Shown piece by piece: positions 15,725-62,663 of a stretch of DNA of 64,000 bases (position 1 is the stretch's first letter; each line of letters begins with the position of its first letter). Below the pieces are notes generated by a model. The model worked only from the letters and a program-made list of their open reading frames with translations. It had not been told where the DNA came from and ran no database searches. The stretch comes from a phage. Where the stretch lies: assembly GCA_012441205.1 (NCBI GenBank), contig GCA_012441205.1_4705.1; one strand, given 5' to 3'. The position numbers and the translations under genes are program-made.

Positions 15725-17215
15725 TTATTTTTTACTCGGACGATTCAATGCGGGTACCGGGTTCTTTGGTTGCTTTGTCTTTTCATCCATCCAGTACGGG
15801 AAGTACTCACCAGTACGCATACGCAATAAGTCCATTGTGGACAGGAACGGCAGCGGGTTAGGATCGTCCAGATACGTCCAGTAACCACGCGTGTTTAACA
15901 ATACATCCCAATCGAAACCTTTTGCTTTAAGATCGTCGTACAGTTCCTGTGGGGTGCAATACAGCTGTGGGTTTTCGTAAACCTCTTGACGCCAGAGATT
16001 ATGCATTTGACACAGCTCCGACGTAATTTCCAGAGCACGCTGTAAATACTCATCCTCTTCGCAGAGAGAACGAATGGTCGTACGCTGCAACGCAACATCC
16101 GGATAAATATCCAAATATACCGTTGAAGCACCATCAGCTGACTTACCACCTGACGCATGCATACCCCAACCACGCATCCAATCTTTATCACGCAGGTAGT
16201 GGTATTCCGTTAATGATGGTTTAACCCCTTCGCTCTGACTAACCACAATCGGGAACGGTAAGCCGGTGGGTCCGTTTTTAGCGCGCATGTTAAAGACTTG
16301 AATCAACTGCAGATCGGTATCCCCGATAAGGTTGTCACCAGGCCCACGCGGATAAAGGACGCGTTTATCCGCGTTCTGAAGAATCGTCAGTTTATCGATT
16401 TTCCAGAGGTTATTCGTATAAAACGTGAAGCGTTCCGGGACGTTCTTAAACTTCTCATCGCCCTTAAACCCTTTCAGTTTTCGTACCGGTTGCTGTCCCG
16501 GCATACCACCAACGTTTACACCGTCACCAAGGTGGGCGGTCATGGTAATGTAGATACCCGCCGACGCTGTGAGTACTGGCATCTGTGATAGAATCTGGCT
16601 TTTCGCAGCTGCTGAACGCATCGCTTCAGCATTCAGTTTTGCGCCACCCGCGGTTTCTTTATCGAACAGTGCATCAACGGCATCGATTGGTAATCCAGAG
16701 AAACTGTCGATGAGTACAACGGTCGGCAACCACCAGGTATAGTTCTCACCGTGTTTATTAATAAACGGAACGGCTTTGCGTTGAGATTTATCTTTGACCT
16801 TGTCGTCACGGAATTTCTTAATCGCATCAAACCAAATGTTACCGCTCATCTGAACAGCATCGGTGATAAACACACGTTCTTCTTCGAAAAGATCGACACC
16901 TGCGATATTAGACATGTTCATCGCAAGCGTTAAGATACGTGTTGTCGTTAACGACATTTCTGTGTCGTAAACGCTACTATTGCTGTTTGCGTAACGATCG
17001 ATAACGCGTAACAAGCGAAACATTATGAACGTGGTTTTGTTCATGTTGCCGCGAGCGCCTGCGCCCTCAACAAGCATCATGCCGCCGTTACAAATGCTTT
17101 CACCGTGTTTACCGACATAGTACCGACCACCAGATGTGGGAATATCCATTAAGCAACCAATGTTGAGATTAAAACGCATCTCTTCACCAGGAGAAAGGTA
17201 CTTATTAAGATTCAT
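15725..17215 (-). CDS. RecA-superfamily ATPase, possible UvsX/RecA-like recombinase (496 aa)
   Basis: Candidate Walker A EGAGARGNMNKTTF, Walker B-like TVVLIDSFSGL (cf. UvsX VVFIDSLGNL, RecA IVVDSVAAL), then AEAMRSAAAKSQIL...AGIYITMTAHL (cf. RecA ARMMSQAMRKLAG...LLIFINQ). Confidence 0.5.
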   Translation of the reverse strand: MNLNKYLSPGEEMRFNLNIGCLMDIPTSGGRYYVGKHGESICNGGMMLVEGAGARGNMNKTTFIMFRLLRVIDRYANSNSSVYDTEMSLTTTRILTLAMNMSNIAGVDLFEEERVFITDAVQMSGNIWFDAIKKFRDDKVKDKSQRKAVPFINKHGENYTWWLPTVVLIDSFSGLPIDAVDALFDKETAGGAKLNAEAMRSAAAKSQILSQMPVLTASAGIYITMTAHLGDGVNVGGMPGQQPVRKLKGFKGDEKFKNVPERFTFYTNNLWKIDKLTILQNADKRVLYPRGPGDNLIGDTDLQLIQVFNMRAKNGPTGLPFPIVVSQSEGVKPSLTEYHYLRDKDWMRGWGMHASGGKSADGASTVYLDIYPDVALQRTTIRSLCEEDEYLQRALEITSELCQMHNLWRQEVYENPQLYCTPQELYDDLKAKGFDWDVLLNTRGYWTYLDDPNPLPFLSTMDLLRMRTGEYFPYWMDEKTKQPKNPVPALNRPSKK

Positions 17216-27652: not shown

Positions 27653-28906
27653 CTACTTCGTTTTCGCCGTTATCGGCTGCGATACTGTAATCTCGACCCG
27701 ATCGACATCGGTACGTTTAACGATGATAAGGCTGCGTTCATCACCGAATGGTTCTGAGATCTTACAAGCCTCTTTAAGATTTTCGAGAATCGTGCCATGG
27801 GGTTCAAACACCGCAAAACCGGAACTAGCGTCGATTCTTATTAAATATACACGCACATTGTTTACGGTAATGGTGTCATCCGTCTTGAACCCACAGCAGG
27901 AGGGTAGACAGAACTGACCATTAACGCAATTAGCTAAGTATGCCTCACCACCGAACATTTCTATTAACGTCACCGGTTTAAATGTTTTCTCTGGGAAAGC
28001 ATTATTAAGAATATCGTTTCCATTCACAAACCAGATCGTTACTTTATCTTCGGAATACGCTAGTCTGTATGGTTGGGTTGCGGACGCCTGCGCTTTATGC
28101 TGGTTAAATAACTTTGATTTTGTCGCAATCACAGCACGACCTTGGGCGTCAAAGTACAGAACTTCATACCCAACACATCCGATAAACACGCGACGGTTAT
28201 TAAGTTCCGGAATTCTGACTACTAACGCATTACCATCTTCCGTCGGTGTAATACCACGTAGGATGATAGATTCGTTGTTCAATGTTGAGTTGCTCACGAT
28301 GACGCTTCGCATTACCGCTGGCGACACTATTTCATCTGCTGCAGGTTCAAGTTGCTCCGCTGTTACAGTCACGGATCTGTCTTCCTTTTCAACTGGCCAG
28401 TTGAAAAGGATTGTTTTATTAAGACAAACAATTGGGGTAATTTCGCCGATACTCCGTATCTTGACTGAGGGGCAATTGCACACATACGGAACAAAAACAT
28501 CAATATCGTTGGTCGCTTCTTCAAGCATGCTAGCATACGCCATTGCTTCGGGACGATCGGTGAGATGAATAACAGCATAGACGATATCGTCTTTTAACCA
28601 CGCACGTTTCACTCGTCCTATAACACGATTGATGTCTACAATAACTCTCTGAGCTTTCATCTCCCATTTTACTGCATCAGTACCACCCGCAACCACGTTC
28701 GGTTTATCCGTGTTTACACGATGAAGGAAACTATTGATTATTTCCTCATCGATCTGGATATCCTTTCTCGCAAAATTCAACAACGGAATAACGAACTCAT
28801 TGTTACCGCACTTCTCTGCTCCGCGAATGATAGGAGTACACTTCTTGTTCTCATCTGATCCCCAGATAACTTTAGTCATTTTCTGTTTCCTTCTTGGGTT
28901 TTGCAC
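27653..28906 (-). CDS. hypothetical protein (417 aa), Cys-containing
   Basis: ORF in the recombination/nucleotide module; no recognised motifs. Confidence 0.55.
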   Translation of the reverse strand: MQNPRRKQKMTKVIWGSDENKKCTPIIRGAEKCGNNEFVIPLLNFARKDIQIDEEIINSFLHRVNTDKPNVVAGGTDAVKWEMKAQRVIVDINRVIGRVKRAWLKDDIVYAVIHLTDRPEAMAYASMLEEATNDIDVFVPYVCNCPSVKIRSIGEITPIVCLNKTILFNWPVEKEDRSVTVTAEQLEPAADEIVSPAVMRSVIVSNSTLNNESIILRGITPTEDGNALVVRIPELNNRRVFIGCVGYEVLYFDAQGRAVIATKSKLFNQHKAQASATQPYRLAYSEDKVTIWFVNGNDILNNAFPEKTFKPVTLIEMFGGEAYLANCVNGQFCLPSCCGFKTDDTITVNNVRVYLIRIDASSGFAVFEPHGTILENLKEACKISEPFGDERSLIIVKRTDVDRVEITVSQPITAKTK

Positions 28907-36755: not shown

Positions 36756-37055
36756 TTAATGTTTAGGTTCCGTTTTGTGTTGTGCGAGTAATGTGTTGAT
36801 CTGCTCCCGTTGTTCTTTTAAGCATGCAGGAAGCTGGTCTTCCCGTACCGTTCCGATTTCCAACGTGATGTACCAACGTTGTTCGGAAGCCTGCCATTGA
36901 AAACTGCTCTGTAACCTCAGGATGCTAGGATCACGTACCTTGCTTGCACTGTAACGGTTGAACCAATCCAGGTATGCTGCTTTCCCTTCCTCGTCAGCGA
37001 TGTAACGCTGCACGCTGTTCTTCCCTTTGTTCTCGTATCCCGTTGCACGTATCAT
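36756..37055 (-). CDS. hypothetical protein (99 aa)
   Basis: Preferred start ATG 37055 overlaps upstream stop as ATGA; ORF track extends to 37109. Confidence 0.45.
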   Translation of the reverse strand: MIRATGYENKGKNSVQRYIADEEGKAAYLDWFNRYSASKVRDPSILRLQSSFQWQASEQRWYITLEIGTVREDQLPACLKEQREQINTLLAQHKTEPKH

Positions 37056-37834
37056 GCGAACGTTTCTCCTGTAATGTGTTGCGGATGGCGTAGCATGGTA
37101 GCATCCCATTGTACGATCTGGCTTCGGCTTACCCGCATCATGATGGATTCGTCATCAAGCCCCTGTTGCGCAACCGGCAACCAACGTTCCCCAAGCACCT
37201 TCGCTTCAACACGTTTCTTGCGTGGGTTGTAACGCACCTCGCTAACCCAAGCGAATCCAAGCGGATGGACTACCCGTGGATAAAACATGCGAAGCAATTG
37301 ATGCATCCGATCCGTTGCCTCCAATTTGCCATCCACCATGTAAGGTTTCACCATGGTAAGCTTTTTGGTGTAATACGTTCCAACGGTATGGTTACGCCAA
37401 CTTGGCAAGGCATGATCCCCTTCTCTCAGTTTGCTATCCGAGTTCATTGACCAGACCTGCTGTTTACCGGCCAGCATCGCGTACTGCCGATCAACGCAAC
37501 GAACCCGATCGGCGAACAATGGATCCAGGACATCATCCACCGCGCCCTTATTGCGATAACCGTGATGTACCACCAACCTGCTTGCGCTCATCGATGCGGG
37601 ATGCTGGCTCTTATGCGCATACAGCCCTCCGTCACCGCGAGCGTCGTAAAGATAACCGCATGCGCCACGCCATATCACCTTGCCTACGGTTCTCTCGTCT
37701 TCAAGCAGCATCGTCGGCCCATCAAGCAAATTGGTGAACCACTGCACCTTCACGCATTCCGCTTGGACATGCTCAGGTAATGCCTGATACTCTTTTTGGG
37801 TGTATAAGGTATCAAAAATGATTTCTTCGTTCAT
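37052..37834 (-). CDS. hypothetical protein (260 aa)
   Basis: ORF; first gene downstream of the long non-coding region on the minus strand. Confidence 0.6.
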   Translation of the reverse strand: MNEEIIFDTLYTQKEYQALPEHVQAECVKVQWFTNLLDGPTMLLEDERTVGKVIWRGACGYLYDARGDGGLYAHKSQHPASMSASRLVVHHGYRNKGAVDDVLDPLFADRVRCVDRQYAMLAGKQQVWSMNSDSKLREGDHALPSWRNHTVGTYYTKKLTMVKPYMVDGKLEATDRMHQLLRMFYPRVVHPLGFAWVSEVRYNPRKKRVEAKVLGERWLPVAQQGLDDESIMMRVSRSQIVQWDATMLRHPQHITGETFA

Positions 37835-37920
37835 TTAAAAAGTTCCTCTGTTTCACGTTAATTAAACAACGTATTGATTTCTATTTGACAGAATACGAAC
37901 ATCGTACGTATCTATCACTT

Positions 37921-37976
37921 AGGTAACGCTTACGCGTCGCGTTCATGATACCATGCATCATGAAGGTAATATAGCC
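37921..37976 (+). promoter_or_regulatory. conserved intergenic element, copy B
   Basis: AGGTAACGCTTACGCGTCGCGTTCATGATACCATGCATCATGAAGGTAATATAGCC; near-identical to 12203-12254. Confidence 0.4.
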
Positions 37977-38085
37977 GTGAAAGGATTTGTGTTAACGCAA
38001 GGGTTTTGTTTGTTTTTTAAGAAGGGATGGATTTAGAAGAGGTGTTTCAAGGAAGGTAAACGAGAATAGGTATTTTGATTTAAGT

Positions 38086-38210
38086 AAGATGTTATCTGTA
38101 TCCGTTAGAAGTGTATTGTCTAAGTTATCTTGTTTATCTTAGGTTTAATCGTTTTTATCTTGGTATGTTTAAGTTGTTTTTATTTAACTGTTAAAATGCT
38201 TATCTTCAAA
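38086..38210. repeat. AT-rich tract with reiterated TTATCT/TTATC motifs (iteron-like)
   Basis: gTTATCTgta, gTTATCTtg, tTTATCTtag, tTTATCTtgg, cTTATCTtc within about 120 bp. Confidence 0.5.
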
Positions 38211-38220
38211 ACAATGGATA

Positions 38221-38269
38221 ACATGTGTTTACTACGCTCGTTGAGTTATAACTCAACGGTAACACATGT
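38221..38269. repeat. nested palindrome (cruciform-capable)
   Basis: Outer arms ACATGTGTT / AACACATGT enclosing inner arms CGTTGAGTT / AACTCAACG. Confidence 0.6.
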
Positions 38270-38428
38270 CATCTGTGCATTACACTACGTTACATGCTAG
38301 TTAAATCGGATAACTCAAAAAAACATTTGTGATACTCTTCTTCACGTTGTTCATCAGAGTATCTCGTCTATACTCATTGCATTCGTATACGACATAACCG
38401 TTACACGCTAACGCTACGCTTATAGCTT

Positions 38429-38495
38429 GATAACTCTAAGGATAAAAACATAAACTCGCTTCGCTCGTTTAGTTTTTCTTTTTCTTAGAGTTATC
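38429..38495. repeat. 12-bp perfect inverted repeat GATAACTCTAAG / CTTAGAGTTATC separated by 43 bp
   Basis: Read directly at 38429-38440 and 38484-38495; GATAACTC also recurs at 38308. Confidence 0.6.
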
Positions 38496-38661
38496 CTGTT
38501 GCTCGTCTCTAAAGGACTTCGCTCCTCCCCCGTCCCCCGAAGGGGCCGAGGTCGTGGAAATTTTACTTTCCAAATACATTTACAACATCTGTAAACTTTT
38601 ACTCCAGGTACTTAATCTTATCATTAGAAATTATAAAAGAGAAAATAAACACAAACATAAA

Positions 38662-38698
38662 CCTTCCCCCGACCCGTAAGGGAAGGAGGAAGGGAGAG
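38662..38698. repeat. hairpin related to the junction family (conserved apex CCCGTAAGGGAA)
   Basis: CCTTCC-cccgaCCCgtaag-GGAAGG then GAGGAAGGGAGAG; directly 3' of minus gene stop 38705. Confidence 0.45.
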
Positions 38699-38704
38699 AT
38701 TAAA

Positions 38705-39597
38705 TTATTCGGAAACGTTATAACCGAATACTGCTTTACCGTAGGTGTGAGTACCGTCAGCTAACGACAGCACCAACACATGGTTGTATGTAGCGTTAAC
38801 GCCTTTATCGGTAGACCCGGTGGTAGCACCGTTATAGACAAAGGTAGCTGTTTGCAGATTGGTTTTCAGTTCATTGATGATATCATCACTTACACCAGTC
38901 TGTTCTTTAATCAGGGTGGTCAGGTTACCCGCTAAGCCTGCATCGATCTTGGTATCGTTACTGGTAATAGCTTGTAAACCTGCGGTGTAAGTACTGAAGT
39001 CTAACGGATAGGTTAACAGACGTGCTGAGGTCTTGGTACCATCGCCTTCATCAACGTAGGTTAAGTTACCCAGATTGGTAACCTTGATGATGTTAGCCAG
39101 ATCCAGCGTGGTGTTATAAACTTTAACTTGAACAGAGCCATACCACGCCAACGAATCTTCTTTGGCTTCCAGGGTGATCGTCTGGATACCATGCTGGTCG
39201 AAGGTAACCGGCGTAGCTAACGTTTCGGCTTTGATGTCTTTCGCTTTATCCAGGAACTTCTCACCGGAAGGCGTGATCATACCGTAGCGTTGAGCTACAA
39301 GGTCAACCACATCACCGATGGTGGTGTTCGCCTCAACGTTAACACGTACAGCGATCTTCTGGAACCACTTAGCCAGATCCAGACGATGGTAGGTGACATC
39401 TCGGTTATTGAAGTAAGGGGTACCTTCACCAGGACTAAGTGTTAAAGTTGCTTCTGGAGCAGAAGGATTCTTTTCTTTAAGGACGTATTTAAGGTCGGTA
39501 TATTTAAAGCTGGCACCAGTGTCAGCGTTAAGCTGGTTGATCTCATCAACGATAAGTTGCCAAGGTGTTTTTAAAGTAAGCGATACTTGAGCAGTCA
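38705..39597 (-). CDS. paralogous-family protein (297 aa), putative virion structural protein
   Basis: Preferred start ATG 39597 (MTAQVSLTLK); shares Y.R.DL, DLVAQRYGM and LAWYGSV motifs with the family at 50658-54277. Confidence 0.6.
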
Positions 39598-39737
39598 TTT
39601 TCTTCCTCGATAGTTGGTACATCACTCTCAAAAGATGTAAGTGTTTACAGAAATTAATATATTTTATATTAAATGTGAATATTATGGAGAACGACTCCGA
39701 ATCTCCTTTTCGACCATCAAAATCAGAGGACACGAAC

Positions 39738-40283
39738 ATGTCTACTTTAGACTTTAACAAAGCAGCGAAATCCCTTCTGCTTGATCTTATTAACACCAAA
39801 GCGACCCGCACATTGGCTGAAGAAGAACTGCAGTTCGGTACTCCGCAGGAATCTTCCGAACATGAAAAGAACACCGTTATTCAGCTGGACGCGGCGGCTG
39901 AAGCAGCTAACCTGCAGGGTACTCAGCAGTTCTACTACGATCGTCTGGCTCTGTCTGACGTTTTCGCTGATGTAACTGGTGATGTTACTTTCGAACTGCC
40001 GCACGGTACTGACAGCATTCAGGCTTCTGAGCTGGTAAGCAAGCTGGTCACCAAATTCGGTCTGGCTTCCCTGAATGGTGAAATCAGAGAAGAAACCTTC
40101 CAGCTGTCTGCCGGTACTGTTGATGAGGTAATTCTGAATGCGATCGAGGGTGGCCTGGTATACACTGGTACTCTGCGAGTTGCCCTGACCTACGCACTGG
40201 CACCAAAAGACGAACTGGCAACCGTTCTGGCGAATAACGTAGCTGAAGGTTTCGAGAAACCGACCGTTAGCGTTGTTGGCTAA
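39738..40283 (+). CDS. paralogous-family protein (181 aa), strongly codon-optimised, probably highly expressed
   Basis: ATG 39738 with GAGGA upstream; near-exclusive use of CTG, GGT, CGT, CCG, GAA, GCT, ACT, TCT codons; architecture parallels the neighbouring 297-aa protein. Confidence 0.7.
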   Translation: MSTLDFNKAAKSLLLDLINTKATRTLAEEELQFGTPQESSEHEKNTVIQLDAAAEAANLQGTQQFYYDRLALSDVFADVTGDVTFELPHGTDSIQASELVSKLVTKFGLASLNGEIREETFQLSAGTVDEVILNAIEGGLVYTGTLRVALTYALAPKDELATVLANNVAEGFEKPTVSVVG

Positions 40284-40478
40284 TAAGCACATAGAGCAAT
40301 AGTATGGGTTTTGTACAGCTCGGCTATTGATCTTCTACAATTTGGTTGTAACAATCTGCGTGGTTGCACGCTTATCTTTCTCATTGAACGCTTCGTATGA
40401 AGCGTGGTGTTGAAAGGGTTGTGGATCTCCTCAAGCGGCCAGGGACCCAGACCAACCTGAATAAACACAAACACATGT

Positions 40479-40512
40479 TAAGCCCCTCCTCATCCGTTAT
40501 TGGGTGGGGGGG
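40479..40512. repeat. degenerate hairpin related to the junction family
   Basis: CCCCTCC-tcatccgttattgggt-GGGGGGG, between convergent genes ending at 40283 and 40577. Confidence 0.3.
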
Positions 40513-40576
40513 GTCTTATACGTCTTTATGCGTTCCGTTCGTTCTGGAGCGTTTTAGGACGGTTTATGATGGTGTT

Positions 40577-41212
40577 TTACTCAACACTGAACCCGTTCAA
40601 GATGATCGCTTCATAACGCTTACGTTCACGACGTTTGCGTGCCTGCCAACCGTAGATGAATTTCTCATCTTTCTCACGACGTTCCGCTAATTCGATGTAA
40701 TAGGTGCTCTGCATGTCCAGCATCGCATCGATGAGATAATCCTTACCGGTTGCACCACGCTTAGCGATGTAAGCGTCGAGCGCGCTTAACGTCGCAGGTC
40801 CCATCAAACCGTCGGCGTTGATATTCTTCCAGTACGTTTGTCGGTTGTTCATGACGTTCAGATAACGTTGGAGGTTCTTAACCGGGACGGTTTTGCCAGC
40901 ATTGATACCCAGGTCAAAGAGACGGTCAGCTAAGAACACAGAACGTTTCATGACTTCGTCAAGTTTCATCTTATCCCAGAAGTGGGTCTTGTAGATAAAG
41001 AACGCCATTTCCGTGGTAAGGTTACGCATGTTACCGTCCCAGCCGAATTTCGTTTTCAGCGTGGTTTTGTATTGATCGGCGAGTGTTTTCGTAATGCCGT
41101 GGTTCGTGATTCCACCCGAGTCATCGGGATCGTCGACGTAACCTGCTTCGATGCTGGTTTTATCGCGAATGATAAATTCGCACGTGAAATCTTTCTCAGT
41201 AATCTTAGCCAT
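40577..41212 (-). CDS. endolysin, GH108-type lysozyme domain plus peptidoglycan-binding domain
   Basis: AGYVDDPDDSGGITNHGIT matches the GH108 EGGY..DP.D.GG.T..GIT motif; GLMGPATLSAL matches a PG-binding motif; GAGGAG upstream of ATG 41212; no signal peptide or SAR-like N-terminus. Confidence 0.75.
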   Translation of the reverse strand: MAKITEKDFTCEFIIRDKTSIEAGYVDDPDDSGGITNHGITKTLADQYKTTLKTKFGWDGNMRNLTTEMAFFIYKTHFWDKMKLDEVMKRSVFLADRLFDLGINAGKTVPVKNLQRYLNVMNNRQTYWKNINADGLMGPATLSALDAYIAKRGATGKDYLIDAMLDMQSTYYIELAERREKDEKFIYGWQARKRRERKRYEAIILNGFSVE

Positions 41213-41338
41213 TAGAACTCCTCGTTTAAATAACGATTTAGAGGAACAGGAAGGGTCTAGAACGCGATAAACGATTTAACCCAGGCAAACCCTAGATTAA
41301 ACTTTTCGAAGCGTTACAACGCGTTCTAGAACGTTGAA

Positions 41339-41800
41339 TTAAATACCCTTGGTTCCCTTCACGTGATGTGCAATTTCTTCAACCATTGCACGCAGAGCAC
41401 GAAGTTGTTGGTCATGTTCGTACCAACCACCCAACAGAACCCCGCTATACACCATGGTGTCAAGACTTAACAGCCCTTTATCTGATACGTTGATCATTTC
41501 CGGGAACTGTTCTTGAACACGCTGTGCGATAACACCGATCTTCTCGACATCAGGATCGTAGTTGTGACGGAAACGGGCAAGTCCGGTATACGCCATTTCA
41601 CGTAAACGATCACTGAAAGATTCCGGATGATCTTTCAGATAACGAATGTCATGTTTACTACGTTCATCCGAGCGAATGTAAGCGTTAGGAACATCGATAT
41701 TGCTGTTGAAGTACAGCGCACTACCACCGCCTGCAGAGTTCCCCCAATAGAAGCGTGTGATCTCACCGCCACCATTCTCCGTGATGATGACATGTTTACC
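41339..41800 (-). other. S74-like intramolecular chaperone (auto-cleaving) domain region of tail fibre
   Basis: SDERSKHDI Ser-Lys dyad motif near the protein C-terminus. Confidence 0.55.
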
Positions 41801-43387
41801 TAAACGCGTACCGCCACTACCATCAACGAAGACCAGTTTGTTTCCGCTGTAAGAACCCCAGAACAAACGTGTATCGATGATGTGCGTTGCAGCGAGGCGG
41901 GCGTTACGTGGCGTAGAATACACGGTGTTAACATCTTGCTGCGCTTGCGCATCGGAAGCGATACCATAGTTCTGTACGTTACCTAACCCAACCTGCGCTT
42001 TCGTAACCGCGTGTGGGTTATCACGACGGTTAGCGTGAGCGTTAACCAGATCACCCGCTAATTTCTGAATTGCCCAGTTGGTAGACTGTGGTGTCATGTA
42101 ACGGTTAGTTGCAGAACCACCTTGCGCTTCAGCTTGGTTAGCGGTTGGATAGTTCTCAACGCTTCCCAAACCGACCTGCGCTTTGGTTACTCTGTGTGGG
42201 TTGTTCTTGTCAGCGATGTGCGCATTAAGCGGAACTAACGCAAAGGTCTCAATGGACGCTTTGGTTGTGTTCGGTGCCATTAATCGGTTAGCTGCAACAC
42301 CGGCACGCGCTTCTTCTTCAGAAGCCATCGGATAGTCTTGCACATTCCCTAACCCAACCTGCGCTTTGGTTACTCTGTGTGGGTTGTTGTAATCGGCTTT
42401 ATGTGCATTAAGTGGAATCAATGCGAACTGTTCAATCGCTGCAACAGTGCGTAGCGGCGTCATGAAACGGTTGTTCGCTGTTCCGGCTTTCGCCTCATCA
42501 TCCGAAGCGGTCGGGAAGTTATCAACGTTCCCAAGGTTAACCTGTGCTTTGGTGACGCTATGCGGGTTGTCTCGACGGTTAGCGTGAGCGTCGACTAGAT
42601 CGCCCGCCAGTTTAGCAATCGCCCATCCAACCGTTTGTGCTGTCATGTAACGGTCTGGTGCGGTACCGGCTTCTGCCTCCGCCTTGTTGGCAGTAGGATA
42701 GTTCTGTACATTACCTAGTCCGACTTGGGCTTTTGTGGTTTCGTGCGGGTTATCGGTACGGTTAGCATGTGCGTAATGCAGATCGGTCAGATCTTTATCC
42801 GCTGCTTGCATGTCTTTGCGTAACTGATCGATTGCCGCCCAGAGACGGTTATCGGATGCAGCATCACCGATAAGTATTGCGGCTTTCAGTGAATAGATCG
42901 CTAAGCAAAGATGTTCGGTACCGTAGATAGCACTAACGTGGTGGATGTGTGGTTCAGGCGGATAAAGTTCCGGTTTGTTCTTGATGTCGTCCCAGTTGAT
43001 CGGACGATCGTCAAGTTTGAGTTCTTCGATAGCCTGATACAACGCGTCAATAAGACTTACGTAAACACCACCGATGATACGATAGTCGTTAACTAACGTC
43101 CCCTCGATATCATCGTTGATGATGGCGATGGCTGCACAGATTTCTTTACCAGCGTAAAGCGTAGCGTCCTGATACAAGAAGATGGGTTTGTAATCCACGC
43201 CGCGTACCAGTGTCTTACCGGTAAGCTTTTCAGTGATGACCAGACTTTCGGTGAAGAACGGTCCGCCATCAAGAGCGTAACATTTGTTCTCGGTTCGTGG
43301 AACGGTATGCTCTTCACCAACGATGTGGTTGCTATCGAGCGTGCCGGTCCAGTCCTCGGGGTACTTCAGGGTAATTGGTGTTGACAT
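41339..43387 (-). CDS. tail fibre protein with tandem repeats and C-terminal S74-type intramolecular chaperone domain
   Basis: Five repeats of about 50 aa of type NPH.VTKAQVGLGNV.NY.....EA..G...NR.MTP; C-terminal YIRSDERSKHDIRYLK...GLLSLDTMVYSGVLLGGW typical of the autoproteolytic chaperone of fibres and tailspikes. Confidence 0.75.
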   Translation of the reverse strand: MSTPITLKYPEDWTGTLDSNHIVGEEHTVPRTENKCYALDGGPFFTESLVITEKLTGKTLVRGVDYKPIFLYQDATLYAGKEICAAIAIINDDIEGTLVNDYRIIGGVYVSLIDALYQAIEELKLDDRPINWDDIKNKPELYPPEPHIHHVSAIYGTEHLCLAIYSLKAAILIGDAASDNRLWAAIDQLRKDMQAADKDLTDLHYAHANRTDNPHETTKAQVGLGNVQNYPTANKAEAEAGTAPDRYMTAQTVGWAIAKLAGDLVDAHANRRDNPHSVTKAQVNLGNVDNFPTASDDEAKAGTANNRFMTPLRTVAAIEQFALIPLNAHKADYNNPHRVTKAQVGLGNVQDYPMASEEEARAGVAANRLMAPNTTKASIETFALVPLNAHIADKNNPHRVTKAQVGLGSVENYPTANQAEAQGGSATNRYMTPQSTNWAIQKLAGDLVNAHANRRDNPHAVTKAQVGLGNVQNYGIASDAQAQQDVNTVYSTPRNARLAATHIIDTRLFWGSYSGNKLVFVDGSGGTRLGKHVIITENGGGEITRFYWGNSAGGGSALYFNSNIDVPNAYIRSDERSKHDIRYLKDHPESFSDRLREMAYTGLARFRHNYDPDVEKIGVIAQRVQEQFPEMINVSDKGLLSLDTMVYSGVLLGGWYEHDQQLRALRAMVEEIAHHVKGTKGI
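41990..42820 (-). repeat. coding tandem repeat array (tail-fibre shaft repeats)
   Basis: Repeated DNA blocks; segment TTCTCAACGCTTCCCAAACCGACCTG at 42156-42181 recurs at 47836-47861 in the second fibre gene. Confidence 0.6.
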
Positions 43388-43400
43388 AACCTGGAGGTCC

Positions 43401-45998
43401 TTATAACGTGACTGTACCTAATTTGGTTGTCTTATTGAGATTAATGACTGAGATCTGGGTATCGCTGGTCGTGATGGTGCCGATATTAACGCGCTGTCCT
43501 TTATCATCCTCTTGCTTGTGGATGGTTAATTCCAGCTCTAACTGGTTACCATTAGGAACAACGGAAACGTACCATGTTTTATTACCTGGTGAGCTATTAT
43601 AGTCTTTTAGGTTATAATGGCCTTTAGGTAAGGTCATGGCCTTACCAGCAAACAAACATGAAATATCCTCGTTGATATAAACGTCGAAACCGGAAGAAGC
43701 GATGACTGTTGAGGCCATTATTCGAGACGCGACGATACCACGATTATAGTCGTCGATTGTGGTACCTATGACATTGAATACTTGCCCCCCGTTACCCATA
43801 ATGGTCGATTCGCTAGTGTTTACGTAGCCGATACCCCAAGTCGGATGAATGTTCCAGCGGTACCCACTGTTTTGTAAATATGTATACAAGTCTTCATAGG
43901 CCGCATTCACCCAACTACCATCACTTTTTCGTCCAGCCCTAAATTGGAATGTATTGCTATTTCCAGATGTTCCTCGGCCAAGAGGGACATGTCCCGCCAC
44001 TAACCAACCATCTGTACTTTGCATATACGCGAACGAACCGTACGCTCTGTTATCGGCCCAAATATTCACGGTATCAACACGTTCAACGTAGGCGATCACC
44101 TTTTGTACGCCGGTTATAGCGATCGAACCCTTGCGTGCCGACACACTAACTTCAGCAATTACGACACCCATTTTCCGCTGGCTGCTGTTAAATCCCAATA
44201 CAACCATTAAACACGGTGCGTTTGTTGTTTCTGGAGGAATCGTTATCGATTGTTTCCAGTCGGTGATTCCGCTGAGTTTTGTTCCAGTATATGCGTTCCA
44301 GACGGTTTGTCCAGCCGATTTCAGATTCTGTTCAGAAATAGAAATGGCCTCGCCCTCAGGGATTAACGTGTCGTAATTGAGACCAATGTTGCTGGATAGA
44401 CGAAGGTCGTTTAAGTAAGATCCGCTGAGTGTGACGTTACCGTTACGATAAATTGTCAAGAATGGCGCAGCCAGGGAGTTTAATACCGTAAAGTTACTCG
44501 ATGGCATGAAACCATAGACATCGATGCCATTACCGTGGTAATGGTAGTTTGTCCAACTACCTTGATAACTTACGGTACGTGCATCGTAGTGGCCTTGTCC
44601 AAGACCGCTGCTGGATAACGTGTATATCTTGGTTGCTGATAGAAATGCGAGATATCCATGCGCTGCCAGAGCTCCAACTACCCTGTCTTTTATCTTTAAC
44701 CAAGCTGAAGTATACAACGTACTGTCGGGATTCATTTTGGCTATTTCATCGTAAGCCGTGCCTGCGAAGTTTCCGATAGTGTACGTACGTATATCCGGCT
44801 GTCCGTTATTGTCGTTCTGTACAGCAATTACTTGCCCAGAATCATTGATATCGATATTACCGATACAGTTGTGAGCCCCCCACACCCAATATCCATCTTT
44901 ATAATTGGATTCTCCTTGTGTAAATGTCGACGGTCCTCGCCACGCGATGCCGTTCGATTCGGCGTAGTAGGTAGCTTGTCCCGATCCTGGATTCATGGCG
45001 TATCTGTTATTGGTCGGGTCAAAATCGATGTAAAAATGATGCATTCCTTGACGTTGACGGTTGTCCCGATCATTTGTCCACCACGACGAACCGACCAGAA
45101 TTCGCGCCTTACCATTTTTTACAGTGGACCATAAACGTATTGCGGCGCGCCAGACGATTTGACCGATCCCGTTGGACGGGAAACTATTCGTACTGATGCT
45201 GTTGCAGACAACGAGCTCGCTGCTGTTGTTTATTTGAGTCCCTTCAATTGTAACGCCGTTTATGTTAGTAATCAGTGTTGCCGATACACTACCCCCTGTA
45301 GGGGCGATAGAGGAACGTTGAACGGTGTAAATTTTTAGTGATAATTTATAGCCGCTCCGAATAGCTATACCAATGTAAATAGTTCCGTTAATTTCCCAAC
45401 AACAAACATCGGGCATTGTTTCTTTGAAATCGGATAAAGCACCGTCGATATACATCGCAACGTGTTTACTGGCGTCGAATGTGCCGTCCGTTAACGCGAT
45501 GAACATTTTGGCGTTATTGCCGTTGATATCAGCCGCTAATCCGAGTAGTATGTTGTTCTGATGACAGTAGATGGCTTTAGGTGCTAGATCCAACATAGCT
45601 GGTTGGTACTGTCGGCTTGTTGGTATTACGCTAGTAACTGCACCATTTTGATCCGTTTTACAAATAACGTAATATACACCGTGTATGATGCTGTTTGTCG
45701 CTGACCTCAGTAGGACGATCGTCCCGTCAGATTCACGACATATACCGTAATGGCGATAGTCGGTGATTAAACCGATAGCGCCATCGGCCGAACCTTCGAT
45801 TGCCAGAGGAAAATAACTTTGGTCCCCAACCTGTTCGATATCGGTTGCGCCGATATCGATGTATTTTTCCATCTCAGTGTTGAACTCAGCGGTACTGTAG
45901 GCACCGAGATCGCTCGCCTTTAGTCCCGTTGGGTTGTCACGACTGGCGATACGTGTAGTAACGCTACTCACCAGTTCGCTGAACTTTTTCATTGCCAT
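43401..45998 (-). CDS. large tail protein, putative tailspike or receptor-binding protein (865 aa)
   Basis: N-terminus MAMKKFSELVSSVTTRIASRDNPTGLKASDLGA shares an anchor-like motif with neighbouring tail proteins. Confidence 0.55.
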   Translation of the reverse strand: MAMKKFSELVSSVTTRIASRDNPTGLKASDLGAYSTAEFNTEMEKYIDIGATDIEQVGDQSYFPLAIEGSADGAIGLITDYRHYGICRESDGTIVLLRSATNSIIHGVYYVICKTDQNGAVTSVIPTSRQYQPAMLDLAPKAIYCHQNNILLGLAADINGNNAKMFIALTDGTFDASKHVAMYIDGALSDFKETMPDVCCWEINGTIYIGIAIRSGYKLSLKIYTVQRSSIAPTGGSVSATLITNINGVTIEGTQINNSSELVVCNSISTNSFPSNGIGQIVWRAAIRLWSTVKNGKARILVGSSWWTNDRDNRQRQGMHHFYIDFDPTNNRYAMNPGSGQATYYAESNGIAWRGPSTFTQGESNYKDGYWVWGAHNCIGNIDINDSGQVIAVQNDNNGQPDIRTYTIGNFAGTAYDEIAKMNPDSTLYTSAWLKIKDRVVGALAAHGYLAFLSATKIYTLSSSGLGQGHYDARTVSYQGSWTNYHYHGNGIDVYGFMPSSNFTVLNSLAAPFLTIYRNGNVTLSGSYLNDLRLSSNIGLNYDTLIPEGEAISISEQNLKSAGQTVWNAYTGTKLSGITDWKQSITIPPETTNAPCLMVVLGFNSSQRKMGVVIAEVSVSARKGSIAITGVQKVIAYVERVDTVNIWADNRAYGSFAYMQSTDGWLVAGHVPLGRGTSGNSNTFQFRAGRKSDGSWVNAAYEDLYTYLQNSGYRWNIHPTWGIGYVNTSESTIMGNGGQVFNVIGTTIDDYNRGIVASRIMASTVIASSGFDVYINEDISCLFAGKAMTLPKGHYNLKDYNSSPGNKTWYVSVVPNGNQLELELTIHKQEDDKGQRVNIGTITTSDTQISVINLNKTTKLGTVTL

Positions 45999-50657: not shown

Positions 50658-51563
50658 TTATGCTACATATAACGTCAGATAACCGTCGATGAGCGTATTC
50701 ATCACACTGAGTTGAAGTACGACAGCTTTACTACCATCTGTACGTACACCGAACGGTAGTGTTTTGAATTGCTCTGGATCGGCTATTACTTGCGCATTCT
50801 GCAAGTTGAGCGGTCCAGGCATTGCTGACAATACCCAGCGATCGTTGACCATAAGGCCGTCGATCTCTTCAGAGAGACCCAATTGCAGTGCGTTCATTTC
50901 TGCGATTAGTGCCTCCGATTGCGTATCGCCTGAGGTTAGCGTATACCCATCGGTAAGCGATGCCAGAACACCAGCAGATACGAACCAGTTGTACGAAACA
51001 ATAGCGCCTGGGAGTTTACTGCTATCTCGATCGATGATATAATTCAACCCAGCCAACATATTGTTGCGAACGAGGTTGTTGAGGTCATTATGTCCTGAGG
51101 TTAACTCAACAAGTAACTGACCAACCCATACTTGGTTACCGGGTTTAGGTGTTATCATAACCTGTATCGGTGACTTGGACTTATCCAGATCCGCGTCGAC
51201 AATCTCGGTTTTGTTGAGAAGGATACCGTACGTCGATGCTAAGACAGGTAGGATCTCAGAGACCTTGGTTAATGCATCTAAGGTTTCGATCTCGATGGGC
51301 CAGCGGTGCTGTCCGCCAGACCAGGTACCCAGTTTACCAAGATCGATGCGGTTATAATAGATGTCGACAGAGTTCACCAACCCTGAACCCGGTTGGGGAT
51401 GCACGGTTAACTTGCTGTTACGCTTGTACCATGTGCTTTCAGAAGCCTCACCGATAACCAGTTTATCCAGCGTTACGCCTCGAGCATCGAAATCGCTATG
51501 CTTTCGAATCAGCAGAAAGAGGATTTCTTTCGATTCTAACCCCAGGATTTCACTGTACTCCAT
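50658..51563 (-). CDS. paralogous-family protein (301 aa)
   Basis: Motifs YYNRIDLG, LASTYGIL; similar to the 283-aa and 311-aa neighbours. Confidence 0.6.
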   Translation of the reverse strand: MEYSEILGLESKEILFLLIRKHSDFDARGVTLDKLVIGEASESTWYKRNSKLTVHPQPGSGLVNSVDIYYNRIDLGKLGTWSGGQHRWPIEIETLDALTKVSEILPVLASTYGILLNKTEIVDADLDKSKSPIQVMITPKPGNQVWVGQLLVELTSGHNDLNNLVRNNMLAGLNYIIDRDSSKLPGAIVSYNWFVSAGVLASLTDGYTLTSGDTQSEALIAEMNALQLGLSEEIDGLMVNDRWVLSAMPGPLNLQNAQVIADPEQFKTLPFGVRTDGSKAVVLQLSVMNTLIDGYLTLYVA

Positions 51564-52479: not shown

Positions 52480-53331
52480 TCAGTTATATTGCATCAACAG
52501 GATACCGCCGTAGTTCGTGCAGTAATCTTGGCTAAGCGTAACGATAACAGCGTTAGCGAACGCAGGGTTAACAGGATAACCCTGTGCGATAAGTTCTGTT
52601 GTTTTACCGGTTGCAAGCACGGTGGCTCCGTAAAGGTTGTTTTCGTCTTCACGGCCGTTATAAACCCATGGGGTTGGCGCAACGTTGTTGAATAAGCTAA
52701 CCAATGCGCTTAAGTTACCACCAACTTTTAACCCGGCGAGATCGGAACGGATAGCTGTACAGTCTATAGCGTAACTGTAGACCAATGCCTGGATACGATT
52801 TGCGGTGTAGTACGGGAAATTGAGACCGGTCATCACCGAAGTCTTCATCATCCCCGCAATATCGTGGGCACTATCGAGGAGATAGAACGTAACACTTCCC
52901 GTCCAAGCCAATCCGGTTGTTTTCAATTCTACGGTGTGAGGGAACGGATACTCATCACCTCGTACGATCGGAGAATCGACGCAGCTATCCTGATCGATAA
53001 CGATTCCGTACGTTGATTGAATCAGAGGGATAAGATCGTGCGTTGTTTTAACCCCAGCATCGATAGCAAGCTTCGGTTCCATTCCCAAGAAGAAGTCTTG
53101 GATAGGGATACGATCGTACCACACGTAGCTGCTTTCGCGGTATTGTGCTGGTGTTACTGTTGCCGAAGGGGATACCTTAGCGCGAGTGTTTCGGCTATAC
53201 GCGTGGTTTCCGTTTTCAGCAACATCCGTGATATCAATTGCATCGAAGTTAAAGTCGAAGTCAGGATTGGCTGCCTGAATAAGTTCAGCGACCAGTACTT
53301 TAGGACTTTTGTTTAACAATTTCTGACTCAT
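52480..53331 (-). CDS. paralogous-family protein (283 aa)
   Basis: Motifs WYDRIPIQ, IQSTYGIV, LAWTGSV, DYCTNYGG. Confidence 0.6.
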   Translation of the reverse strand: MSQKLLNKSPKVLVAELIQAANPDFDFNFDAIDITDVAENGNHAYSRNTRAKVSPSATVTPAQYRESSYVWYDRIPIQDFFLGMEPKLAIDAGVKTTHDLIPLIQSTYGIVIDQDSCVDSPIVRGDEYPFPHTVELKTTGLAWTGSVTFYLLDSAHDIAGMMKTSVMTGLNFPYYTANRIQALVYSYAIDCTAIRSDLAGLKVGGNLSALVSLFNNVAPTPWVYNGREDENNLYGATVLATGKTTELIAQGYPVNPAFANAVIVTLSQDYCTNYGGILLMQYN

Positions 53332-53341
53332 TGTTTATTCC

Positions 53342-54277
53342 TTAGCCTTGTTCTTCTGGAGAACGACCCTGGAGGCTTGCGGTATGTCCGTCGACGTTGT
53401 AATAGAAAATCAATGGACCGCCGACAGCAGTACAGTAGTTTTCATCCAGACTGATCTCGATACCGTATTGGTAACCTGCTCGTGCTGGAATACGTCCACC
53501 TAACTCGCCGTTGAAAGCCACTTTAGCGTTATACAGGTTATACGGTGCGATGTTGTCGTCTAATACCCAACGATCGGTAGTCATTTCAGCCAGAAGATCG
53601 GCAACCACCACATCGCTAATAACGGTACCTGTTACCAGCGAAGCCAGCAGTTCACCGTAATCAGAGGTATCACGACTGTAACTGTAAATCTCACCGCTAG
53701 CGCGTACGCCTTGACCAAAGAACTTAAGACCATCCAGCTCCTTGATCGCGATAATATCATCAAGATTCGGTACACGCGACTTCATCAAGATACGAACGCT
53801 CCCCGTCCAAGCCAGGCAGTTAGATGCGACACGAAGCAATTGTCCGTTAACAGTATCCCAGTTAAGTTCGTCGTTGACGATTTCTTCCGCGGTAAGACCA
53901 AGACCGAAACGTTCTTTGATGATAGGCCAGATATCACGCATCTTGGCGGCGTCTGGCGCATCGATAAGAATAGGCGCTACGTTACGCAGATACGCACCGA
54001 TATTGATACGATCGTAATACAGCGTCGTCGAACCTTCATAATCGTCTAACTCGGTAAGCTTAGCGGTTGCTGTCGCCGTAATCTGGGTGTCGCGCTCATA
54101 GGCGCTTTGGTTGGTGGTTGGTGTTCCTAAAACCAATAATTCAGGGGTTAGGATATGCTCTCCGTTCTGAGGTGGGTTATCGTGGTTGATAAGACCATAC
54201 ACGAGATCGGATGAGGGTAAAGAGACGTCGACCGGGTAAAGTTCGGTGTCGTCAATAGTTGTTACCGTATCACTCAC
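53342..54277 (-). CDS. paralogous-family protein (311 aa), GTG start
   Basis: Motifs YYDRINIG, LAWTGSV, NYCTAVGG; GTG 54277 with GGAGG 5 nt upstream. Confidence 0.6.
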   Translation of the reverse strand: MSDTVTTIDDTELYPVDVSLPSSDLVYGLINHDNPPQNGEHILTPELLVLGTPTTNQSAYERDTQITATATAKLTELDDYEGSTTLYYDRINIGAYLRNVAPILIDAPDAAKMRDIWPIIKERFGLGLTAEEIVNDELNWDTVNGQLLRVASNCLAWTGSVRILMKSRVPNLDDIIAIKELDGLKFFGQGVRASGEIYSYSRDTSDYGELLASLVTGTVISDVVVADLLAEMTTDRWVLDDNIAPYNLYNAKVAFNGELGGRIPARAGYQYGIEISLDENYCTAVGGPLIFYYNVDGHTASLQGRSPEEQG

Positions 54278-60104: not shown

Positions 60105-62663
60105 TTACTGCTCTTCACGTTCCAGCAGATACTCGGAAGCGGTAATACCGTTTACCGTACGTACTGCTTTCAGACGAGTATCATCGCTCAGAATTACAGT
60201 AACAGATTGCAGACCTTTTACTTTGGTTTCGAAGGTCTTGAACACCTGATCCAGCATACGAGCAATGCTTGGGTTGGTTGCAGCCGATGCGTGGGTGTAA
60301 CCGCTTTGGTTCAGCTTCAGAATCTTGGCGTTGGTCGGTACGCGAACAACAACATGCGGACGCATCGCGAACACGCTATGATTAAACCAGTAAGCATCGT
60401 TGCTATCTTCGTCGGTAACGATGTCTGGATTAACACGCATATCCTCGACAGCCGCATCCGCCAAACGACGTTCGATTTCATCGGCGTCCAGAGAGCCATC
60501 TTTCTCCAGTTCTGCACGATACTCACTCATGGCAACCAGATGACGTTCACGATTCGCTGCGGATTTTTCGTGAGCGGCTTTCAGGTAGTCATGCATGTTG
60601 TACAGTTCTGCCATGGAAAGACGAATGTTCCACTGACCTTCGCCGTCACGATTGCAGTAGAGACACTTCAGCATGTTGACCCAGGTATAGTAGCAATTGG
60701 AGAATTCATCTTCAATGAACTTCTGGTCCATTTTAAGATCGTGAATCAGCCAACCGGACAGTTCTCCGATATCATCAACGAAGCTAGAGATGGTGGTTTC
60801 AGAGAAGTTCTTCGGTACGATACGTTTGATCAGCTTATTGACGTCTTTGGTCATGCTATCGTTCAGGAAATGCCAGATACGCAGAGGAATAACATCTCGA
60901 TACTGTTGCATGATCTGACGATAAGCTTTGATATCGTCGCTACGACCTTTATCAATAGACAACGCATCCAGGAATTCATGGATTGCATCCAGCTCTTTGT
61001 CGGTATAGGTTCCCAGATAGGAATTGACGGTGGCAAGGAATGCTAATGCGTCGTTTTGGTTGACGTCGGTGTTGGTCTGCTGAATGATTGCCACTGAAGC
61101 TTTGGTTTCAGCATCCTCAACGCTTGACGCTGCGATTGCGTCGGTGACGGTAAACAGTTTCATTTCGCGCTGCTCACCGACAACGATTGGCTCACGTTGA
61201 ACCGGTTTGTTAAGACTAACACGAACAACTTCTGCTTGCGCGATACGATCCAGTTTTGCCATTTCCTGCTCTGCCATACGACGAGCGGTTGGATCTGATT
61301 CAAGTTCGATGTATTCCACTTCTTCCTCCGTGAGGGATGTAATGTCAACAATGGTTTCATGAAGAATTCCGTTTTCGTCGATACGTGCTCGACGAGCGAA
61401 GTGCCTGAAGTCATACAACGTCGGCCAACGACTATTAGGTGCAAAGTCTTTGGCTTTCAGACGCATCTGCATAAATTCTTCATGTTGAACAACACGACCG
61501 TAACGCTTAGCATCTTCGGTCGCATCAATTGGATTAACGGTCTTTGTTACCGTAGCAGAACGAGCCGTACGAACGGGTTCCGGTTTCACCTGCGCAGGTT
61601 CAGGTTGAACGGGTTTCTGCTGCCCAGCCTTAACATGCCATTCTGGCTCTTCGTACTGTTCAGCAAACTGTTCAGCCGCTGCAAAGATATCGTTGATACC
61701 ACCAATATCTCCTTCAGGATTTGTCGAGTAAATCCGTGGTTGTGGTGCCTCGTAACGCGGCGCTGTAGTAGCAGGCACCTCATCAACGATAGGATCGTCA
61801 TCACCAACATCATACAAACGGTTGAACGCACAATCCTTCGAATCAATGTACGATGGCGCTTGTGGTTGGACAACCGTCGGCCGAGGTTGTGCACCGTATC
61901 CTGGTGTTGTTGGAGCCATGCCGCGCATAACTGCCGGACTAGGTTGGTATTGCGGTTGCGGATAGGTTCCACCATACATAGCGTACGCAGGCTGTTGTGG
62001 TTGACCATACCCGTTGCTAACCATCGCGCTTGCTTGCGGCCCACGATAAGTCATCCCCATCTGCATCACCTGCTGCTTCAAACCACGTGACTTCTGAGCG
62101 ATTTGCGCTAGGCTTCCGCTTTTATTCAGCTGCGTGTACTTATTCGCGGCTTCCGGGTTAATGCGTGATAATTCGATCGCGCGATAATATTCCGGGTACT
62201 GATTCGGTTCAAAGAGCCACGTTACAAGGTGATACAGCGCAACTGTGCTCACAGCAGCAGAGACGATCTGGTCGTCGGACGCGTTCTGCGGCATCGGGTT
62301 GATGTAAGAGAATACGTTCCAACAACAGTCTTCAACAAGCGATTCCATCATCATATCGTTATTGGTATAACGTGCGACGAACTCGGTTTGTATTTTGTCT
62401 TGCTGAGCGAAGTCTTTCAGGACATTAAAGATGGCTTGACGGATTTTGACGATCGTCGCTTCTTGGGTGATGAAGTTATAGTTCTGCTGATATGAGGGTT
62501 GTTGGTATTGTGGTGGTTGATAGGCGTTATTCGGGTATGCGCCGTACGGAGATTGCTGATACTGTTGCTGACGAACCTGTTCAGCCGCATAATTAACCGT
62601 GCTCGTATAAGGGTTTTCGCTATAACCCATTTGTTGATACATGTTGTTACTGCCATTATACAT
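60105..62663 (-). CDS. hypothetical protein (852 aa) with Gln/Tyr/Pro-rich low-complexity N-terminal region
   Basis: ATG 62663 with AAGGA upstream; N-terminus YQQMGYSENPY...QQQYQQSPYGAYPNNAYQPPQYQQPSYQQNYN plus further PQ/Y-rich stretches. Confidence 0.65.
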   Translation of the reverse strand: MYNGSNNMYQQMGYSENPYTSTVNYAAEQVRQQQYQQSPYGAYPNNAYQPPQYQQPSYQQNYNFITQEATIVKIRQAIFNVLKDFAQQDKIQTEFVARYTNNDMMMESLVEDCCWNVFSYINPMPQNASDDQIVSAAVSTVALYHLVTWLFEPNQYPEYYRAIELSRINPEAANKYTQLNKSGSLAQIAQKSRGLKQQVMQMGMTYRGPQASAMVSNGYGQPQQPAYAMYGGTYPQPQYQPSPAVMRGMAPTTPGYGAQPRPTVVQPQAPSYIDSKDCAFNRLYDVGDDDPIVDEVPATTAPRYEAPQPRIYSTNPEGDIGGINDIFAAAEQFAEQYEEPEWHVKAGQQKPVQPEPAQVKPEPVRTARSATVTKTVNPIDATEDAKRYGRVVQHEEFMQMRLKAKDFAPNSRWPTLYDFRHFARRARIDENGILHETIVDITSLTEEEVEYIELESDPTARRMAEQEMAKLDRIAQAEVVRVSLNKPVQREPIVVGEQREMKLFTVTDAIAASSVEDAETKASVAIIQQTNTDVNQNDALAFLATVNSYLGTYTDKELDAIHEFLDALSIDKGRSDDIKAYRQIMQQYRDVIPLRIWHFLNDSMTKDVNKLIKRIVPKNFSETTISSFVDDIGELSGWLIHDLKMDQKFIEDEFSNCYYTWVNMLKCLYCNRDGEGQWNIRLSMAELYNMHDYLKAAHEKSAANRERHLVAMSEYRAELEKDGSLDADEIERRLADAAVEDMRVNPDIVTDEDSNDAYWFNHSVFAMRPHVVVRVPTNAKILKLNQSGYTHASAATNPSIARMLDQVFKTFETKVKGLQSVTVILSDDTRLKAVRTVNGITASEYLLEREEQ

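Follow-up and report, generated by a model that had tools for sequence, protein, structure and literature searches.

A strongly codon-adapted ortholog of Goslar gp23, a short DUF7941 virion protein gene, in a collinear relative of Escherichia phage Goslar

The gene, its neighbourhood and its family

The open reading frame (ORF) at 39738-40283 on the plus strand lies in a stretch of 64,000 nucleotides of phage DNA (contig GCA_012441205.1_4705.1 of GenBank assembly GCA_012441205.1), the whole of which was analysed and is referred to here as the window. It encodes a protein of 181 aa, and the coordinates given in the preliminary description are exact. Both the Shine-Dalgarno sequence AGAGGA (39725-39730, +), located 7 nt before the ATG at 39738, and the tandem stop codons TAA TAA (40281-40286, +) can be read from the sequence; TAA is the stop preferred by highly expressed E. 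coli genes. A consensus scan placed the hairpin GCGTGGTTGCACGC and a subsequent T-rich run, together resembling a terminator, 75 nt past the stop (40358-40381, +), which would leave the gene monocistronic, and the predicted RNA fold of this 3' region was no better than that of shuffled sequences (z = -0.6). The fully open antisense frame of 181 aa at 39747-40292 (-) was rejected as a gene: it is open because the sense frame avoids the codons TTA, CTA and TCA, and it is broken in Goslar (85 aa). The preliminary description had presented the gene as the only one on the plus strand in its neighbourhood, starting in an AT-rich divergent region and belonging to a family. All three points are borne out, with no other plus-strand gene between 34018 and 49326, a spacer of 139 nt at 39599-39737 with a GC content of 0.34, compared with ≈ 0.47 elsewhere, a divergent partner on the minus strand (38705-39598), and five genes of the same family in the window.

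At the DNA level, the window is 96.4% identical to and collinear with Escherichia phage Goslar, a nucleus-forming jumbo phage, and it spans the arbitrary ends of the Goslar record (Goslar 214445-237307, then 1-41130). The chimallin gene lies outside the window, and the assignment to the nucleus-forming phages rests on this collinearity and the 96% identity. The gene at 39738-40283 is the ortholog of Goslar gp23 (HOV27_gp023, YP_009820708.1), annotated as 'virion structural protein', with 87-88% amino acid identity; gp23 and its abundance have already been described for Goslar, and the gene considered here is the ortholog in a related phage. The two share an identical position at the locus, transcribed away from gp22 and towards the endolysin gene, the same architecture of N-terminal domain plus linker (181 vs 180 aa), a similar codon adaptation index (CAI; 0.62 vs 0.66), and the upstream 12-mer and leader described below. 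They differ by 22 amino acid substitutions and one indel, clustered at residues 25-57 and 117-173, and thus reach 87% identity, while most neighbouring genes reach 97-100%; in addition, the AT-rich spacer in the window is 1 nt longer.

The protein scores 68 bits (cut-off 27; E = 1.2e-18) with the Pfam family DUF7941 (PF25613), covering positions 4-174 of the 276 in the profile, and also matches phrog_2935 and phrog_1037 ('virion structural protein'). It is a short DUF7941 protein, consisting of the N-terminal domain and the linker and ending just past the linker motif, without the C-terminal domain. Goslar gp23, which has the same truncation, was counted as a DUF7941 family member by the authors of a preprint of April 2026 (10.64898/2026.04.21.720040); the missing C-terminal domain marks a short subtype of DUF7941 and does not exclude family membership. 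The divergent paralog, the gp22 ortholog (38705-39598, -; 297 aa), is a full-length DUF7941 protein with N-terminal domain, linker and C-terminal domain (Pfam 177 bits), and a consensus scan found a terminator-like hairpin beside its gene (38686-38662). The three remaining paralogs are the orthologs of gp31 (50658-51563, -; Pfam 184 bits; CAI 0.246, an ordinary codon usage), gp33 (52480-53331, -; 162 bits; CAI 0.316) and gp34 (53342-54277, -; 213 bits; CAI 0.348). DUF7941 has been reported only from chimalliviruses, with paralogs carrying carbohydrate-binding or LRR domains (10.64898/2026.04.21.720040).

Codon usage in the window, in Goslar and in further lineages

The CAI was computed with the Sharp-Li weights for E. 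coli and cross-checked with a second set, which was built from MG1655 genes for ribosomal proteins and elongation factors (30 genes); the weights of both sets agree (r = 0.97). For the gp23 ortholog the values are 0.616 (Sharp-Li) and 0.685 (MG1655-derived), whereas the other 55 genes of the window have a mean CAI of 0.283 (sd 0.061) and a maximum of 0.439, the latter belonging to the gp22 ortholog as the second-highest in the window; the gp23 ortholog thus stands at z = 5.5. For comparison, the median of E. coli ribosomal-protein genes is 0.58, and average E. coli genes such as secY and bfr have values of 0.37 and 0.33, respectively. Random recodings of this protein that followed the codon usage of the remaining genes in the window (20,000 in all) had a CAI of 0.288 +/- 0.026 (observed value at z = 12.5), and not one of them attained the CAI of the real gene. 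The effective number of codons, Nc, is the lowest in the window (34.5, median 52), while GC3 is average for the window (0.48), and therefore the codon bias is not a GC effect. Leucine is encoded by CTG in 19 of 24 cases, glycine by GGT or GGC in 12 of 12, glutamine by CAG in 8 of 8, threonine by ACC or ACT in 17 of 18, and tyrosine by TAC in 4 of 4. The codon bias is hence not due to base composition, strand or amino acid content, and the claim that it sets the gene apart from the surrounding phage genes stands. The wording that host codons are used 'almost exclusively' goes slightly too far: the bias is strong, but 82% of the codons have w >= 0.5, and AGA, CGA, TTA, TTG and three CTT are still present. 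Among the other genes of the window, the gp38 ortholog (60105-62663, -; 852 aa, function unknown) has the third-highest CAI (0.415); its Goslar counterpart is early and heavily transcribed (≈ 1.5 reads per nt), and is unaffected by chimallin knockdown.

For a genome-wide ranking, the Goslar genome (237 kb) was assembled from annotated stretches, and 249 ORFs were scored. With a CAI of 0.659 (z = 4.4), Goslar gp23 ranks third of the 249, and the gene is thus a codon-usage outlier on the scale of the genome. The top class is discrete and comprises the major capsid protein (0.743), the main inner-body protein gp58 (0.731), gp23 (0.659), gp214 (0.655) and chimallin, the protein of the nuclear shell (0.613); the first gene below these five has a value of 0.48. 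The high CAI of gp23 is accordingly not unique, as it is one of five such genes in Goslar. The least understood member of this class is gp214 (Goslar 201334-201813, -; outside the window), a protein of 159 aa of unknown function with ≈ 865 copies per virion.

The preliminary description had also offered recent adaptation as a source of the bias. Three further lineages speak against it: their gp23 orthologs, with 91%, 52% and 47% protein identity, have CAI values of 0.604, 0.559 and 0.591, respectively, compared with ≈ 0.28 in the neighbouring genes of each, so that host-like codons are kept in orthologs only 47-52% identical. In the same context, one may consider that the codons reflect a gene recently acquired from E. 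coli, or else a mutational or strand bias at the locus, rather than expression. The position as the only plus-strand gene in 15 kb and the location in a divergence hot spot could be taken to favour such an origin, which is nevertheless highly improbable. DUF7941 is known only from chimalliviruses, and all homologs found reside in phage-like contigs; the CAI falls in the range of ribosomal-protein genes, above that of secY or bfr; the remaining plus-strand genes of the window are ordinary (CAI 0.26-0.37), and the top-CAI Goslar genes other than gp23 sit on the minus strand; moreover, GC3 is average, and the bias persists in the distant orthologs. Neither a cellular homolog of high identity nor a CAI that tracks the strand genome-wide was seen.

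Abundance, timing and candidate regulatory elements

Data on abundance and timing come from the Goslar ortholog, not from the phage of this window: label-free mass spectrometry of Goslar virions gave ≈ 2,140 copies of gp23 per virion at 90% peptide coverage, with a molar signal level with that of gp58 as the highest, above the capsid protein, and ≈ 580 copies of gp22, i.e. a gp23:gp22 ratio of ≈ 3.7 to 1 (10.64898/2026.04.21.720040). Codon usage is not mentioned in this preprint (10.64898/2026.04.21.720040). We matched 105 proteins of its Table S4 to genes by mass, took the LFQ area per mass as the measure of abundance, and compared it with the CAI; the two are correlated (Spearman 0.56, p = 8e-10), and the three most abundant proteins are the three with the highest CAI. 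The members of the top CAI class are those for which the greatest abundance is reported. The copy number of the ortholog and the correlation over these 105 proteins support the suggestion that the bias marks an abundant virion protein expressed at a very high level.

The alternative role in host takeover, proposed in the same breath, is contradicted by the time of expression. Upon chimallin knockdown in Goslar, gp23 transcripts fell 11-15-fold (log2 -3.5 to -3.95), with reads going from ≈ 530 to ≈ 16 (10.1101/2023.09.20.558163, Supplementary Table 2); the capsid gene (log2 -4.0), gp58 (-3.8) and gp22 (-5) fell similarly, and the adjacent gp14-gp21 block was unaffected (10.1101/2023.09.20.558163). 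Since the knockdown depletes gp23 transcripts as it does capsid transcripts, gp23 belongs to the second, nucleus-dependent stage and is a late gene, not an early one. The mRNA level at 30 min was rejected as the cause of the abundance, since mRNA density in Goslar at this single early time point varies ≈ 3-fold across 25 genes vs a 450-fold range in virion abundance, and gp23 mRNA, at ≈ 1 read per nt, is similar to that of paralogs which are 20-80 times rarer in virions. This mismatch between mRNA and protein, seen at one early time point, fits a large translational contribution. A scan of the window found no tRNA genes, and none is reported for Goslar, so the proteins depend on the host tRNA pool; an Rfam scan of the window gave no hit.

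That abundant phage proteins have adapted codons is textbook knowledge, and translational selection on the late structural genes of coliphages, e.g. T4 and T7, was reportedly described by Sharp and co-workers and by Lucks et al. in 2008. As in such phages, it is the most abundant late proteins that are richest in host-preferred codons; such codon usage is what very heavy expression would be expected to leave behind, and is in itself not new. The difference lies in the unusually discrete nature of the effect, with five Goslar genes far above the rest, and in its occurrence in a phage without tRNA genes of its own, whose transcription and translation take place apart from each other. Raw codon usage alone thus picks out the handful of proteins that a jumbo phage makes most, and it may serve as a cheap flag for major structural or compartment proteins in uncultured chimalliviruses.

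Both genes flanking the AT-rich intergenic region at 39599-39737, the gp22 and gp23 orthologs, are late in the Goslar RNA-seq data, and the region presumably holds the late promoters of both; as a candidate, the 'divergent promoter' of the preliminary description is plausible. A host-type promoter in the spacer was discarded: a sigma-70 scan of 37700-40700 returned five sites vs 5.6 expected, none of them in the spacer, and no such signal is expected because the phage uses its own RNA polymerases. The promoters of the nvRNAP are poorly defined according to the literature. Comparison of five lineages revealed two conserved blocks around an AT-rich spacer of variable length (33-43 nt). The first contains the 12-mer GTAAGTGTTTAC (39637-39648, +), a candidate cis-element common to the major capsid gene, which occurs exactly twice in the 237-kb Goslar genome vs 0.03 expected, both copies in the sense orientation: at 16758 (+), 104 nt upstream of gp23, and at 45757 (-), 96 nt upstream of the capsid gene. 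It is kept with 0-2 mismatches in the four other lineages, and may be a shared cis-element of late genes, which we regard as a lead. The capsid upstream region is invariant in three genomes, so that no covariation signal with the 12-mer upstream of gp23 is possible there. A looser pattern, GTAAGNNNTTAC, is also found 80-130 nt upstream of gp213 and gp29.

The second block, a leader of 42 nt (39683-39724, +) that starts with TATGG, reminiscent of the phiKZ-type late 'TATG' motif, is a candidate for the transcription start and 5' UTR. Its sequence, CTATGGrGAAyGACTCCGAwTCTCCTkTTCGAyCATC, is nearly invariant in the five lineages, one of which has an overall identity of ≈ 74%, and TATGG or TATGA is also present 40-90 nt upstream of the genes for capsid, gp58, gp214, sheath and gp88. 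The fold of the putative leader RNA, including a 5' hairpin, was no better than that of shuffled sequences (z = -0.8). Two further candidates did not hold: a fixed distance between the 12-mer and TATGG, which is 33 nt in Goslar but 33-43 nt across the lineages, and a TATG followed immediately by a short inverted repeat, seen before six late genes, which genome-wide applies to 11 of 79 intergenic TATG sites vs a background of 10% (p = 0.26).

Close by, at 37835-38704, lies an AT-rich stretch of 870 bp devoid of genes, with a GC content down to 0.27, which is unannotated in Goslar as well. It precedes the gp21-gp14 block, whose expression in the Goslar RNA-seq data is early and does not depend on the nucleus, and contains the 9-mer TATATTACC at 37973 (-) with an overlapping sigma-70-like site; we take the 9-mer to resemble the phiKZ early-promoter core. 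In Goslar, TATATTACC also precedes chimallin and gp214, such that the upstream region of gp214 combines this early-like element with a TATG motif.

Fold, filament model and evolution of gp23

A search of the PDB with the sequence of the gp23 ortholog found nothing. An AF2 model, built from 21 homologs, reached a pLDDT of 80, with a C-terminal tail of low confidence, and a Foldseek comparison with the PDB returned a sole significant match, the N-terminal domain of phiKZ gp127 (9xqd chain 0; E = 9e-7, probability 1.00, TM 0.70). For the gp22 ortholog, the same phiKZ protein in 9xqd was already found by sequence (E = 6e-7). The gp23 ortholog and phiKZ gp127 have the fold of the N-terminal domain and the Pfam family in common; on the other hand, their sequence identity is 14%, gp127 is a full-length protein of 290 aa, and it was modelled as a single copy per star lobe, not as a protein of 2,000 copies. 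In the outer peripheral baseplate of phiKZ, gp127 caps the gp139 band (PMC13250141).

With gp22, in Goslar as in the window, gp23 has the N-terminal domain and the linker motif in common, and gp22 is also abundant and of high CAI; gp22 differs in its C-terminal globular domain and in sequence (17% identity), and filaments were observed by negative stain for gp22, not for gp23. Purified Goslar gp22 forms filaments, AF3 predicts head-to-tail oligomers for both gp22 and gp23, and a 'DUF7941 fibre cloud' anchored at the baseplate has been proposed for Goslar (10.64898/2026.04.21.720040). Association with the peripheral baseplate has been observed for phiKZ gp127 and is a proposal for Goslar gp22 and gp23. 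In each of the four paralogs, the linker aligns with the motif (D/E)LAxxxxxxxxxG(F/L) of the gp23 C-terminal tail. Between two tiers of gp23 sequences, the identity amounts to 74% in the N-terminal 34 residues and 73% in the last 23, and to 37% in the core; conserved ends and a variable core would be expected of subunits that contact each other through their ends and whose core is free to vary. These conserved docking ends, together with the variable, swappable core, lend evolutionary support to the proposed filament model.

Most probably, then, the gene at 39738-40283 encodes the counterpart of gp23, the most abundant DUF7941 member, a late protein whose codons were selected for efficient translation and which acts as a head-to-tail fibre subunit. 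Along these lines, gp23 would be transcribed late, after the phage nucleus has formed, as shown on the Goslar ortholog, and its mRNA would be translated in the cytoplasm by host ribosomes, with no phage tRNAs in the window or in Goslar. Some ≈ 2,000 copies would be needed per particle, as many as of the major capsid protein, and selection for efficient translation would therefore have driven the codons to the type of highly expressed E. coli genes. The protein would consist of an N-terminal globular domain and a short conserved tail, LATVLAxNVAxGFEKPT, which, following the published model, may dock on the globular domain of the next subunit. Head-to-tail polymerisation of this kind would yield long, flexible filaments, presumably mixed with gp22 and with the paralogs bearing carbohydrate-binding domains; for these filaments, an anchorage at the peripheral baseplate and a role in host finding have been proposed.

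It is quite unlikely that gp23, lacking the C-terminal domain, caps gp22 filaments or sets their length instead of being the main building block. The domain it lacks takes part in the predicted gp22 interface, which would favour such a role; however, with 2,140 vs 580 copies gp23 outnumbers gp22 in a way unlike a cap, and AF3 predicts that it forms head-to-tail homo-oligomers by itself.

Most window genes are 97-100% identical to Goslar in protein sequence, with dN ≈ 0.005 and dN/dS ≈ 0.05, as opposed to dN 0.079 and dN/dS 0.32 for gp23, i.e. a dN ≈ 15 times that of a typical window gene; for gp22, the values are 0.060 and 0.28, respectively. A public protein collection holds 22 gp23 clusters at 74-99% identity. 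In one IMG/VR genome, whose flanks are 95-96% identical to the window, DNA similarity is lost at 39875-40216, the core of the gene, and is back for the last 68 bases of gp23, suggestive of a replacement by recombination. The gene with the strongest codon adaptation in the window thus also encodes one of its fastest-changing proteins, a combination that is uncommon among highly expressed genes and in keeping with an exposed protein.

These features bear on a different reading, namely that gp23 is heavily made but forms no external fibre, being instead an internal capsid protein or an ejected protein, like the equally abundant gp58, or a cytoplasmic polymer that co-purifies. No gp23 density was seen in the Goslar cryo-EM maps, and the preparation also captured PhuZ filaments and fragments of the nucleus, so that free gp23 polymers could co-purify (10.64898/2026.04.21.720040). 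The lack of a modelled gp23 in these maps, the presence of PhuZ and chimallin assemblies in the virion preparation, and a copy number matching that of the inner-body protein gp58 would all be accommodated in this way. We nonetheless consider it unlikely, given the fold match to phiKZ gp127, a protein observed in the outer peripheral baseplate, the carbohydrate-binding or LRR domains of the paralogs, and the fast amino acid change and core swapping, which suit an exposed protein. Furthermore, head-processed proteins typically lose a propeptide, and the 90% peptide coverage of gp23 argues against such a removal.

Going beyond the fibre-subunit reading, gp23 might conceivably be a massively displayed (≈ 2,000 copies), rapidly diversifying coat, whose polymerisation ends, the N-terminal segment and the C-tail, stay constant and whose core is swapped through recombination among otherwise near-identical phages, and which would tune the binding to host surfaces or evade a host or immune factor, and would be driven by GTAAGTGTTTAC together with the capsid gene; this remains a doubtful possibility. 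If true, such a variable coat would run counter to the usual rule, as a protein made in very large amounts would also evolve fast.

The locus lies within a divergence hot spot (37052-45998) of a genome that is otherwise 96-99% Goslar-like. Here, protein identity to Goslar drops to 66% in the gp26 ortholog (43401-45998), whose dS is saturated, the endolysin gene (40577-41212) has a dS of 0.81 vs Goslar, and the gp21 ortholog differs by indels; the pattern suggests mosaic exchange around the tail-fibre and DUF7941 genes. In the tail-fibre-like gp25 ortholog (41339-43387, -), the sequence NPHxVTKAQVxLGNVxNYP is repeated about five times, and a Peptidase_S74 chaperone domain lies at the C-terminus; the CAI of this gene, 0.39, is among the higher values of the window. 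Elsewhere, the gp9 ortholog (27653-28879, -), a protein of 408 aa of unknown function, is 66% identical to Goslar gp9 with dN/dS ≈ 0.5, while its neighbours are at 99%.
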